Source: an uncultured bacterium (GTDB lineage: Bacteria > T1Sed10-126). Taken from it: a stretch of 36,430 nucleotides of DNA. The stretch covers positions 1-36,430 of the forward strand of contig CAYTSZ010000002.1 of the NCBI GenBank assembly GCA_964440635.1. Reading direction: 5' to 3'. A program made the translations under genes and the position numbers. Positions within the stretch are counted from its first letter, which is position 1; every line of letters starts with the position of its first letter. The notes beneath the pieces were generated by a model. That model searched no databases. It saw nothing but the letters and a program-made list of their open reading frames with translations, and was not told where the DNA came from. Shown piece after piece: positions 2,846 to 25,486 of this stretch.

Positions 2846-2875
2846 TGGATTGCCGGGTCAAGCCCGGCAATGACG
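2846..2875 (+). repeat. REP-A hairpin TGGATTGCCGGGTCAAGCCCGGCAATGACG
   Basis: 9-bp perfect stem (ATTGCCGGG/CCCGGCAAT) with a 5-nt loop. The same motif occurs at 9229, 9270, 12732 (inverted) and 25456. Confidence 0.85.
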
Positions 2876-2886
2876 ACGAAGGGGGA

Positions 2887-2979
2887 TGGATTGCCGGGTC
2901 ATCCAGCACTCAATCGGGGAATTGCAGAAAAAACATAAAATTTTCACTGGTAGTTCCCGATTGAGTGCTGGACGGCAAT
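2887..2979 (+). repeat. long-hairpin element copy 1: REP-A arms split by a 16-bp inverted repeat plus a 37-nt loop
   Basis: TGGATTGCCGGGTCA | TCCAGCACTCAATCGGGG ... CCCGATTGAGTGCTGGA | CGGCAAT. The inverted repeats are at 2903-2918 and 2956-2971. It sits between the convergent 3' ends of trm112 and the GT4 gene. Confidence 0.85.
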
Positions 2980-3018
2980 GTTGGAGATGATGGAAGGTTC
3001 GGCCTGACCGTAAGTTCT

Positions 3019-7740: not shown

Positions 7741-8055
7741 ACGTGACTGCGTGATGAGGCTATAAGTCAGGGGTCGAAGGTCGAAGGTCGAAATGACAAA
7801 GTCAAGGGCGGTTACCATAGAGGTCACATAGGGACACCGCGTAAATTCAAAATATTTTAAAAGGGGAACCTTCAACGGTAATGACAAACTGTTTTGGGTC
7901 GTTATTCCGGGGCCTGACGCACACGGATGTGCTAATGCTGCAAACACAAGGATGTGTAAGAACAGTGCGAGCCAGAATCCATTGTTGTTGGCTTGCTATT
8001 TTTATTATTGGTTTTAACTTGTGGACTCTAAACGATGAACCGTGTTTCAGGGAGG
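7741..8055 (-). repeat. mosaic long repeat, copy LR1 (modules F-tail, C-core, G, B-variant, E)
   Basis: The reverse complement of 7741-7915 aligns along about 170 nt with 21969-22140, roughly 85-90% identical by eye. 8008-8055 resembles the E module at 13098-13145. Confidence 0.8.
7772..7792 (+). repeat. three tandem heptamers GGTCGAA
   Basis: GGTCGAAGGTCGAAGGTCGAA read directly. The homologous site in LR4 has four units. Confidence 0.85.
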
Positions 8056-8976: not shown

Positions 8977-9019
8977 ACAGATTTTTTTCTTAATACAAAA
9001 ACGGTTTTTTCTGATTTTT

Positions 9020-9112
9020 ACTCTGTGCCCCTCTATGATCTCTATGGAGAAATCGGGTTTGCTTTAAGGTTTTGTTTCCAACTATAAACGCACAACTATG
9101 AACGGTATTTGA
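9020..9112 (+). repeat. D-like and E-like repeat modules
   Basis: CTCTGTGCCCCTCTATGATCTCTATGG resembles CTCTGTGTCCCTCTGCGACCTCTGTGG at 12976. GGTTTTGTTTCCAACTATAAACGCACAACTATGAAC resembles GGTTTTAACTATAAACTACGAACGATGAAC at 13105. Confidence 0.6.
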
Positions 9113-9154
9113 TCCTTGGTATGTCAAACGTGGAAATAACTGTCTGTTTTAGAT

Positions 9155-9184
9155 CGTCATTCCGGGGCTTGACCCCGGAATCCA
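9155..9184 (-). repeat. REP-B hairpin CGTCATTCCGGGGCTTGACCCCGGAATCC
   Basis: 9-bp perfect stem (ATTCCGGGG/CCCCGGAAT) with a 5-nt loop. The inverse copy is at 12807-12835. Confidence 0.85.
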
Positions 9185-9228
9185 ACTTGATTTTTAATTA
9201 AAATTGTGAATCAACTTCAAATTCAAAA

Positions 9229-9310
9229 TGGATTACCGGGTCAAGCCCGGTAATGACGGGCAGGTGAAATGGATTACCGGGTCAAGCCCGGTAATGACGG
9301 GCAGGTGAAG
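9229..9310 (+). repeat. two tandem 41-bp units, each a REP-A hairpin plus GGCAGGTGAAR linker
   Basis: TGGATTACCGGGTCAAGCCCGGTAATGACGGGCAGGTGAAA is repeated at 9229-9269 and 9270-9310 with one mismatch. A third unit starts at 9311 but is interrupted by the long-hairpin element. Confidence 0.9.
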
Positions 9311-9403
9311 TGGATTACCGGGTCATCCAGCACTCAATCGGGAGCTACCAGTGAAAATTTTATGTTTTTTCTGCAATTCCCCGATTGAGTACTGGACGGC
9401 AAT
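9311..9403 (+). repeat. long-hairpin element copy 2, with its loop inverted relative to copy 1
   Basis: The flanks are the same as copy 1 (TGGATTACCGGGTCATCCAGCACTCAATCGGG ... CCCGATTGAGTACTGGACGGCAAT). The 37-nt loop AGCTACCAGTGAAAATTTTATGTTTTTTCTGCAATTC is the reverse complement of the copy-1 loop, 36/37. Confidence 0.88.
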
Positions 9404-9538
9404 TGCGAAACCGTTAGAATGATCTGACAGTGACGACTGGATGGTTTCTCCTTTTGATTTATTATGCGAAAATATATGAACTACAGATAAAACCGGTCAC
9501 ACCGGAATCAATACTGCTTTAATGGAGTGATTGAAGAA

Positions 9539-12504: not shown

Positions 12505-12614
12505 TTCACCACAGAGAGGTCACAAAGGTAAAATCAAAACCGATAAACAAAGTGCATAGTTCAAACTATAAATCAAAACCAATGGATTGCGGATCGCTGA
12601 CCGGGATGACAACC
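12505..12614 (+). repeat. mosaic repeat modules D'/E'/B' (left part of copy LR3)
   Basis: 12526-12614 is 87/89 identical to 21894-21982 in direct orientation. It includes the diverged REP-B hairpin TGGATTGCGGATCGCTGACCGGGATGAC (12583-12610). Confidence 0.88.
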
Positions 12615-12627
12615 AAAAGAAGCCATC

Positions 12628-12720
12628 ATTGCCGTCCAGCACTCGATAGGGAGTTACCAGTGGGAACTTTATACTTTTTCATCAACTCCTCGATTGAGTG
12701 CTGGATGACCCGACAATCCA
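12628..12720 (-). repeat. long-hairpin element copy 3 (whole element inverted, stem decayed)
   Basis: ATTGCCGTCCAGCACTCGATAGGG ... CCTCGATTGAGTGCTGGATGACCCGACAATCCA is the reverse complement of the copy-1 architecture. The loop orientation matches copy 1. There are about 3 stem mismatches. Confidence 0.8.
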
Positions 12721-12731
12721 CTCTACCCCCG

Positions 12732-12762
12732 CCGTCATTACCGGGCTTGACCCGGTAATCCA
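12732..12762 (-). repeat. REP-A hairpin (inverted)
   Basis: CCGTCATTACCGGGCTTGACCCGGTAATCCA is the reverse complement of the 9229-type unit. Confidence 0.85.
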
Positions 12763-12806
12763 TGTTGAAGTTGATGTTGGTTGACAGGTGTAATTCAAAA
12801 TAAAAA

Positions 12807-12835
12807 TGGATTCCGGGGTCAAGCCCCGGAATGAC
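12807..12835 (+). repeat. REP-B hairpin TGGATTCCGGGGTCAAGCCCCGGAATGAC
   Basis: Exact reverse complement of the core of the 9155-9184 hairpin. Confidence 0.85.
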
Positions 12836-13145
12836 AACCTAAAACAGGTTGCCTTCGCCGTTAAAGTTCCCCAGTCACCTCATCACGCAATCACGACTCA
12901 GCTTTTGAATCTACTCCTTAACTTCTTCACTCTGGTGGTTTAGGATTTTATCCCTCTCGAATGCCTTTGAATTTCCTCTGTGTCCCTCTGCGACCTCTGT
13001 GGTAAAAAAGTAGTTGATATTGAATTTGATGTTGATGTTGCTGTCCTACTGTCTCCCCTTCCCCTTGTCCGCCTCATTCTCTGTGGTAAAACGGGGGTTG
13101 AATTGGTTTTAACTATAAACTACGAACGATGAACTATAAACTGGG
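12836..13145 (+). repeat. mosaic repeat modules G, F, X, D, E (right part of copy LR3)
   Basis: 12878-12932 is 55/55 identical to 22124-22178. 12976-13100 is an inverted relative of 21800-21893 (TTTTACCACAGAGG..., GACAAGGGGAAGGGGAGACAG, CAACATCAAC motifs). 13098-13145 is the E module. Confidence 0.85.
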
Positions 13146-21522: not shown

Positions 21523-21573
21523 AATAAAAACCTCCTACGGGTTAATCGACCGCTTCCTTCAACTTGAAGACAA

Positions 21574-21680
21574 TCCCGCACTCAATCGGGCTTTAGCAGG
21601 GAATAATAAAGAATAGCTCTGTAACACAGTTATTTTGATTACCTGTGAATCAAACTGCTACTCCCCGATTGAGTGCGGGA
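21574..21680 (+). repeat. long-hairpin element copy 4 (variant arms, 72-nt loop) in the rpsB upstream region
   Basis: Arms TCCCGCACTCAATCGGG (21574-21590) and CCCCGATTGAGTGCGGGA (21663-21680). The loop ends resemble copy 1 (TTAGCAGGG..., ...ACTGCTACT). There are extra internal hairpins (CTGTAACACAG; TGATTACCTGTGAATCA). It lies 52-158 nt upstream of the rpsB GTG. Confidence 0.8.
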
Positions 21681-21779
21681 CACCCTTCTTCAAATCCAGA
21701 AACGTGATTGATTTAAGTTAATTCAGTTCACAAACAATAGAGTTTAGCAAATAAACCCCTTAAAAACAAACATAAAAAT

Positions 21780-22178
21780 CAAAACATCCAGTCAAAACCA
21801 GTTCCACCACATAGAGAAGCAGACAAGGAGAAGGGGAGACAGGGGGACAAGGGGCAACGTCAACATCAACTACTTTTTTACCACAGGTCACAGAGGTAAA
21901 ATCAAAACCGATAAACAAAGTGCATAGTTCAAACTATAAATCAAAACCAATGGATTGCGGATCACTGACCGGAATGACAACCTAAAACAGGTTGCCTTTA
22001 CTGTTGAAGGTTCCTTTAAAATGTTTTGAATTTACTTGGTGTCCCTCTGTGACCTCTATGGTAACCGCCCTTGACTTTGTCATCTCGACCTTTGACCTTT
22101 GACCTCCGACCCCTGACTTATAGCCTCATCACGCAATCACGACTCAGCTTTTGAATCTACTCCTTAACTTCTTCACTC
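21780..22178 (+). repeat. mosaic long repeat, copy LR4 (modules E/D, E'/B', G, C-core, F)
   Basis: It contains segments 87/89 and 55/55 identical to LR3 in direct orientation, and about 170 nt homologous to LR1 in inverted orientation. Confidence 0.88.
22084..22111 (-). repeat. four tandem heptamers (GGTCGGA GGTCAAA GGTCAAA GGTCGAG on the minus strand)
   Basis: The plus strand reads CTCGACC TTTGACC TTTGACC TCCGACC. This is the homolog of the 3-unit array at 7772-7792. Confidence 0.8.
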
Positions 22179-22199
22179 GGGCGGTTTCGACTCTTCGAT

Positions 22200-25455: not shown

Positions 25456-25486
25456 TGGATTACCGGGTCAAGCCCGGTAATGACGG
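25456..25486 (+). repeat. solo REP-A hairpin
   Basis: TGGATTACCGGGTCAAGCCCGGTAATGACGG is identical to the 9229 unit core. It lies between the phosphonate operon 3' end and the rseP start. Confidence 0.85.

Follow-up and report, generated by a model that had tools for sequence, protein, structure and literature searches.

Hairpins whose asymmetric interior occurs in two inverted forms are known from the ends of linear replicons: the ITRs of parvoviruses and the telomere hairpins of poxviruses exist as flip/flop isomers, which are produced by hairpin transfer or resolution. Repeat-derived hairpins that replace the apex of a helix are known from the intervening sequences (IVS) of 23S rRNA and from the STRR repeats in P12 of cyanobacterial rnpB. 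The Correia elements (CREE/nemis) of Neisseria are small and non-coding, possess long inverted repeats (26-bp TIRs), occur in full-length and internally shorter classes, are transcribed as long hairpins, duplicate a TA target, and carry an IHF site and promoters at their ends. An in-situ inversion of the enclosed core between strains has been reported for them (Elbeyioglu 2017, as cited in PMC10969869). In Coxiella, IS1111 is nested at a fixed point of the QMITE2 REP hairpin, and a 'QMITE2 inversion in other strain' was noted (PMC5896051). Template switching between the arms of an inverted repeat makes the two arms uniform and leaves the spacer or loop inverted (PMC8794818, PMC8604942, PMC5941160), and the loop inversions reported for this process are mostly 4-8 nt (PMC8794818).

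We analysed a 36,430-nt stretch of DNA from an uncultured bacterium, hereafter the window, in which a small hairpin core is nested in REP hairpins with its interior in either orientation. This hairpin family is previously undescribed, and its host is an uncultured lineage. The closest functional parallels appear to be the Correia elements and the QMITE2/REP/IS1111 nesting of Coxiella. The core shares with the former the small non-coding form, the long inverted repeats, the two size classes and the long hairpins, but it has no target duplication and no promoter-like site, its arms are different, and it is nested in a REP hairpin. Unlike the guest in Coxiella, it is a 71-bp non-coding hairpin without a transposase, and it replaces four nucleotides of the REP. 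As a multi-copy, dispersed sequence with terminal inverted repeats it agrees with a prokaryotic MITE, except for the target-site duplication. It resembles template-switch quasipalindrome mutations in its perfect arms and in an interior that is reverse-complemented with its length preserved, but this interior is 37 nt, much longer than those reported, and exchange between copies is partly needed in addition. As in the viral hairpins, the two inverted forms of the interior stand in a fixed outer stem and flank; here, however, the repeats are internal to a chromosome and have neither a HUH enzyme nor a resolvase linked to them. Relatives of the core replace apices in rnpB and in an rpsB leader in the manner of IVS and STRR repeats, with the difference that three helices of a single RNA carry members of one family, which is found nested in REPs as well.

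Structure of the REP-nested composites

The window is an ordinary chromosomal segment with the genes rpsB-tsf-pyrH-frr-uppS-cdsA-dxr, rseP-ispG, folE2, gshA and a PEP-mutase cluster, and all four elements of the arm family in it are intergenic. No transposase, integrase or invertase was found among its approximately 30 ORFs when they were scanned against Pfam, and no RAYT (Y1 transposase) or IS110-family gene was found in the window.

Three of the four elements are composites with the order left REP half (TGGATTRYCGGGTCA), arm (TCCAGCACTCAATCGGG), 37-nt interior, complementary arm and CGGCAAT, and the REP flanks TGGATTRCCGGGTCA / CGGCAAT are common to all three. Copy 1 (2887-2979, forward strand) reads TGGATTGCCGGGTCA / TCCAGCACTCAATCGGG / 37-nt loop / CCCGATTGAGTGCTGGA / CGGCAAT, with the left half of REP-A at 2887-2901, the arms at 2902-2918 and 2956-2972, the loop at 2919-2955 (defined as orientation A) and the right half of REP-A at 2973-2979. 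Copy 2 (9311-9403, forward strand) has the layout of copy 1, with TGGATTACC... on the left; its REP-A halves are at 9311-9325 and 9397-9403, its arms at 9326-9342 and 9380-9396, the latter with one mismatch (GAGTACTGG), and its loop at 9343-9379 is in orientation B, the reverse complement of copy 1. Copy 3 (12628-12720, reverse strand) is inverted as an entire unit, with arms at 12635-12651 and 12689-12705 and the loop at 12652-12688, which is in orientation A relative to its own flanks.

The flanks, the inverted repeat and the loops of the three copies read exactly as an initial annotation of this DNA had described them, apart from the length of the arms. The inverted repeat is shared by the copies as stated, but it is 17 bp in copies 1-3 and not 16 bp, because a further T...A pair extends it. 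The annotation had also claimed that the loop of copy 2 is flipped against that of copy 1, and this was borne out: the loop of copy 1 shares 36/37 positions with that of copy 2 once the latter is reverse-complemented, and only 19/37 in direct alignment. Across all 71 nt of the core, copy 1 and reverse-complemented copy 2 have 69/71 positions in common (97%). Its description of copy 3 as the copy-1 configuration inverted as a whole fits as well, with 27/37 identical loop positions after reverse complementation versus 16/37 directly. Chance was excluded as the source of these motifs: with up to three mismatches the arm motif matched eight times in the window against 0.25 expected, the flank motif matched ten times against 1.08 expected, and no shuffled sequence reached either count.

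A plain REP reads ...GGGTCAAGCCCGGCAAT, and the plain REP-A in the window is TGGATTRCCGGGTCAAGCCCGGYAATGAC, so the inserted core replaces AGCC between GGGTCA and CGGCAAT. The junction is invariant, which agrees with the earlier proposal that another element is lodged precisely within REP-A. In the predicted single-strand fold the composites form long hairpins of -15 to -30 kcal/mol, built from a 7-bp REP stem, a 5-nt bulge and the 17-bp arm stem. The 71-bp core is placed in the apex of the REP-A hairpin, and it is a small, non-coding, non-autonomous hairpin repeat.

The interior of the core is polar and 36-39 nt long, with the consensus AGCTACCAGTG...TTTTTCAGCAACTC. Among 22 aligned copies the 17-bp arms were nearly invariant and the interior was variable, loops differing by up to approximately 35-40% between loci; RNAalifold supported the 17-bp arms only and no conserved fold of the interior. 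No Rfam family matched anywhere in the window at gathering thresholds, and with permissive thresholds the core gave nothing meaningful (a miRNA family, E = 2.2).

The host REP-A is a conventional REP, a short imperfect palindrome that forms tandem arrays with a 41-nt period and inverted doublets, as in REP/BIME/REPIN arrays. A plain REP-A unit (TGGATTGCCGGGTCAAGCCCGGCAATGACG, 2846-2876, forward strand) lies directly 5ʹ of copy 1. On the 5ʹ side of copy 2, two tandem plain REP-A units with the 41-nt period occupy 9229-9300 (forward strand), preceded by a REP-B-type unit (GTCATTCCGGGGCTTGACCCCGGAATCCA, 9155-9184, reverse strand) that makes an inverted doublet with the next REP-A. Copy 3 adjoins an inverted doublet of REP-A (reverse strand) and REP-B (forward strand) at 12733-12836, which is homologous to 9144-9259 in inverted orientation (116 nt, 88%), and a solitary plain REP-A unit is located at 25456-25486 (forward strand). 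The array upstream of copy 2 has two units in the window and four in an ENA assembly (L135:93-274) that is otherwise approximately 99.5-99.9% identical; the extra units represent copy-number variation or assembly collapse. Both doublets (window 9136-9275, forward strand, and 12715-12855, reverse strand) matched RF02625, the Wolbachia sRNA WsnRNA46; the first scored 50 bits (E = 6e-8) and the second 41 bits (E = 2e-5), both short of the gathering score of 65. This Rfam family may model a widespread palindromic repeat of the GTCATTCC...GGAATCCA type.

Loop orientation across loci

Family members were collected by exact-pattern scans of genomes and metagenomes, the metagenome scan covering the short-interior class. 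A scan of genome contigs with the 16-mer arm gave mostly single matches by chance, with approximately 11 real loci among the matches listed. The family DNA came from the JGI metagenomes Ga0182238 and Ga0182239, in which sequence 100% identical to the window is present, from the MAGs JBKGYI01 (C1M08_32), JBNJDC01, CAZVWJ01 and CAZKRS01, and from a few other contigs. Members of the family are 71 or approximately 107 bp long; the window has four of them, and related DNA contributed more than 30. The REP-nested set contains at least 21 distinct loci after those found twice were merged, from the window, the two JGI metagenomes and three related MAGs, among them JBKGYI01 and CAZVWJ01.

The junction GG(G/A)T(C/T)A / TCCAGC...GCTGGA / CGGCAAT was present at 21/21 of the listed REP-nested loci, each with the 5-nt GGTCA bulge on the TGG side, and the same junction with the same loss of 4 nt was found in at least three genomes. 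When the interior was compared with the flanks at these 21 loci, four of which have degenerate flanks and were scored by eye, 15 were in orientation B and six in orientation A. This split indicated that the uncoupling of interior and flank, which the initial annotation had noticed in three copies, is general and not peculiar to copy 2.

The direction of the loop relative to neighbouring transcription was random (11:9). Against the sequence of the loop itself, the distribution was less even. The 'AAAATTTTATG' loop clade contained four A and one B, and the remaining loci two A and 14 B (Fisher approximately 0.011, for a clade chosen post hoc). A permutation test of orientation over the whole tree was weak (p = 0.10). 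From these distributions, loop orientation appears to be partly inherited.

One explanation of such a pattern is that the core entered REP-A twice, once in each orientation, and that the two founder composites were amplified separately with no later flipping. The partial clade specificity above is what this predicts. On the loop tree of the 21 listed loci, however, at least four orientation changes are required. Copy 2, a B locus, lies in an otherwise A clade and is separated from copy 1 (A) by 2/71 differences only, and two A loci, copy 3 and L114, fall within the B clade. Both founders must also have arrived at an identical junction. We regard separate founders as quite improbable.

Each orientation was stable at its own locus. 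That of copy 1 was reproduced in the Logan assembly L133, whose contig ends inside the loop, that of copy 2 in Logan L134 and in ENA L135, which spans the element completely, and that of copy 3 in ENA L105, the independent assemblies being approximately 99.5-100% identical to the window at copies 1-3. Because these assemblies agree, copies 1-3 are not assembly artefacts, and the suspicion that copy 2 might be one can be dropped. The two JGI samples likewise agreed in orientation at three loci (L111=L121, L124=L129 and L127=L131), and all loci represented in two or three assemblies or samples had one orientation each, as judged from consensus assemblies and not from reads.

This bears on the first of two explanations offered by the initial annotation, a miniature invertible switch. 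In a programmed switch of this kind, the 37-bp segment at each locus would be turned around between the 17-bp repeats by a site-specific recombinase, and phase variation would result. Perfect inverted repeats do flank the segment, copies do occur in both orientations, and copies 1 and 2 are opposite in spite of their near identity. Nevertheless, each independent assembly or sample showed a single orientation per locus at consensus level, there is no recombinase among the approximately 30 genes of the window, no promoter-like site was found inside the loop, and the loop is random with respect to flanking transcription. Loops that diverge by up to approximately 35-40% between loci carry no common cargo. 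In addition, two sites occupied by recombinase on the same duplex lie much too close together at 37 bp to synapse. A programmed switch is therefore hardly credible here, and the two orientations look like an evolutionary polymorphism between loci rather than a reversible regulatory switch.

Related genomes were compared at the orthologous sites. In the sister genome L137 (GshA 96% identical), the spacer between the DUF1189 gene and gshA keeps its edges and contains only degenerate REP remnants without a core, and the region of copy 3 has no counterpart. In the relative L138 (MAG C1M08_32, GshA 72% identical), the spacers are 135 nt at the site of copy 2 and 7 nt at that of copy 3. The repeat arrays and the cores nested in them are therefore recent lineage-specific additions or losses. 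No clean pair of a plain REP and a composite was present among the related genomes compared. An orthologous locus with the opposite loop orientation was not found among them either, so we infer, and did not observe, a flip at a fixed site.

A 13-nt module with the consensus TTGGAAGGTTCTG follows some of the composites. It starts 10 nt after the CGGCAAT of copy 1 (ATGGAAGGTTCGG, 2990-3002, forward strand), and a degenerate copy starts at the same distance from copy 2 (TTAGAATGATCTG, 9414-9426, forward strand). The module stood exactly 10 nt after CGGCAAT in 6/18 composites, namely these two and L111, L114, L125 and L130, and in 0/19 plain REPs (Fisher 0.008), the latter being a small sample biased towards the neighbourhoods of composites. 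Three of the six module-bearing composites were in orientation A and three in orientation B. The reverse complement of the module also occurs in a short, ancestral-like spacer of L138 (approximately 1940-1952).

Family members outside REPs

The fourth member in the window, absent from the list of the initial annotation, lies outside any REP. Its arms TCCCGCACTCAATCGGG enclose a 73-nt loop, the core is at 21574-21680 and the unit at 21564-21693 (reverse strand), and it forms the apex of an rpsB leader hairpin with the outer stem 21564-21570 / 21687-21693. The MAG C1M08_32 (L140:2315-2460; RpsB 91% identical) has a long-loop member in the same place and orientation, with both arms identical to those in the window and the interior 76% identical. 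In L141:1550-1600 (RpsB 80% identical), the same leader stem is present (7-bp outer stem, GGGTG, apex, TT), and the apex is a 17-nt hairpin, TTACGTCTTTTACGTAA. From this short apex on the same stem, we conclude that the element replaced the apex of a conserved rpsB leader hairpin. The outer stem of the leader covaries between genomes, and for this reason the leader may be autoregulatory for S2.

Further members were found within RNase P RNA. The rnpB genes of two related MAGs (L063:1566-2187, reverse strand, and L074:240-834, forward strand) match RF00010 with 131 and 126 bits, and in both of them helices P3, P12 and P14 are each replaced by a family member of approximately 108 nt with arms CCCMGCACTCAATCGGG. 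The three members borne by rnpB are all in the same orientation, their interiors are 69-72% identical between the orthologs in L063 and L074, and rnpB reaches approximately 620 nt. No relevant report of hairpin repeats in rnpB emerged from a literature search. In practice, hairpin repeats of this kind break short-read assemblies and inflate rnpB to this length.

Among the remaining members outside REPs, a 9-bp inverted repeat lies flush against both sides of L117, and L034 and L027 are not in hairpins, so hairpin apices are frequent but not obligatory sites for the family. Within functional RNAs, selection alone could explain the placement at apices. The main interest of the family lies in this habit of occupying hairpin apices, in REPs, in the rpsB leader stem and in three helices of RNase P RNA, and in arms of 17 bp that are identical across genera while the interiors drift. 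It offers a natural system for the colonisation of structured DNA and RNA by hairpin repeats.

The members outside REPs also bear on the second explanation of the initial annotation, a MITE inserted into the loops of REP-A in either direction. In this reading the core is moved in trans by a transposase that recognises the 17-bp TIRs and targets hairpin apices, REP-A above all, and the orientation of insertion is random because the ends are symmetric. Solo cores outside REP-A (21574-21680, L034, L027, L117, L044 and three rnpB helices) make it plausible, as do the hairpin apices at several of the non-REP sites, the occurrence of cores of different subfamilies in the same outer unit, and the sister genome, which has no core at the sites of copies 2 and 3. 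IS1111 in the QMITE2 REP of Coxiella provides a precedent (PMC5896051).

Several observations speak against such an insertion. No target-site duplication was found at any of approximately 30 sites, where the flanks are GGGTCA / CGGCAAT or inverted repeats, and no core-less site with GGGTCA joined to CGGCAAT was present in the DNA collected. The loss of AGCC would be needed at every insertion into REP-A, in at least three genomes; loop subfamily and orientation are correlated, and the split within each subfamily is not 50:50; and the module at +10 follows composites only, with 0/19 among plain REPs. Neither distant arm pairs nor a full-length IS bounded by the arms was found in approximately 185 kb of family loci, and viral contigs contained neither the short nor the long size class and no IS with matching ends. 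We therefore hold the trans-mobilised MITE to be a possible but doubtful explanation and do not favour it.

A less probable alternative, unlikely in our judgement, is that the arms define self-propagating hairpin modules, which home to the apices of existing hairpins by a structure-directed single-strand mechanism. If so, a HUH/RAYT-like enzyme or template switching from hairpin to hairpin would replace the old apex, flip/flop isomers would be inherent in the process as in parvoviral hairpin transfer, and the mode of mobility would be distinct from that of cut-and-paste MITEs.

Several other sequences resemble parts of the family. In L030, L071 and L084, distant arm 'pairs' were considered as ends of an IS and rejected as being at chance level. 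A solitary left arm, GTCAT followed by CCAGCACTCAATCGGG, lies at L083:574-589 (MAG CAZKRS01) with no partner arm in the 2.2-kb contig, perhaps as a truncated element, perhaps as one end of a longer element. Contigs of other organisms (L112, L113, L120, L122, L123, L126 and L128) contain hairpins with different outer arms and an inner arm shared with the family, (C)ACTCAATCGGG / CCCGATTGAGT(G), for example GGGGACACTCAATCGGG in three contigs. These may belong to a wider superfamily or may be a coincidence of the search pattern.

Copying of the composite and origin of the two orientations

The core and its flanks have histories that disagree. Copy 1 and L121 share an outer unit of 228 nt, of which the upstream part is identical at 119/129 positions (92%), whereas their interiors are identical at 23/37 positions (62%) and opposite in orientation. 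Conversely, copies 1 and 2 are only 78% identical when the upstream REP, the spacer and the composite are aligned directly, though their cores agree at 69/71 positions and are opposite.

Four observations led us to favour the composite as the unit that is copied: the module follows composites only, no core-less site exists in the DNA collected, there is no target-site duplication, and the junction is always the same. Taken together with the disagreement of core and flank histories and with the partial inheritance of orientation, these sequence comparisons suggest that the composite is copied as a unit and that its interior is then flipped or exchanged. We consider it reasonably probable, as the overall explanation, that the composite is copied with its REP host, that the interior is flipped or swapped by means of the arms, and that the result is a set of fixed states and not a switch.

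Under this explanation, the REP::core composite, often with the downstream 13-nt module, would be copied along the genome with the REP-A arrays. Because the arms are exact reverse complements, the interior can be restored in either orientation. A template switch across the hairpin during replication would restore it either way and leave the REP flanks untouched; by an alternative route, arm-templated repair or gene conversion from another copy could do the same in either register. Loci would then each become fixed in one of two 'flip/flop' states. We infer both the mechanism of exchange or flip and the enzyme that would mobilise the composite.

Copies 1 and 2 have the features of a template switch: the interior is a near-exact reverse complement (36/37 versus 19/37 directly), and its length is kept at 37 nt. 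Template switching between the arms would also explain why arms are near-invariant while interiors drift; this contrast would fit homogenisation of the arms, or arms that serve as substrates for recombination or template switching. Within the favoured explanation, we give a flip or swap by means of the arms, inside a propagating composite, slightly better than even chances, and we regard independent re-insertion of the core as a tentative and lesser contribution. The members outside REPs (21574-21680, L034, L027, L117 and the rnpB helices) count against the explanation, since a core that occurs there could also have inserted into REP-A independently in either orientation.

The polymorphism of orientation is an ordinary consequence of a repeat with palindromic ends, and for that reason it does not merit pursuit as a switch for phase variation. 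The same loci offer a natural system for the study of how palindromic arms drive concerted evolution and loop inversion.

Other insertions and mosaics were seen among the intergenic repeats of the window. In a REP-B-like hairpin at 2790-2835, GTCATTCCGGG...CCCAGAAT, 23 nt of unrelated sequence, CAAGACAACGTAGTGACCGCAGA, stand in place of the loop, and L121 has the same loop-replaced variant; REP apices seem to tolerate other insertions as well. A mosaic of further intergenic modules is common to three spacers (7742-7910, 12517-13075 and 21816-22187), with matches of 96 nt at 91%, 102 nt at 96% and 64 nt at 97%, and it includes a short tandem run of GGTCGAA/GGTCAAA. The motif CTCTGTGYCCCTCTRYGAYCTCT occurs at 9011-9050, 12966-13005 and 22025-22064 of the window and is also present in the sister genome L137.
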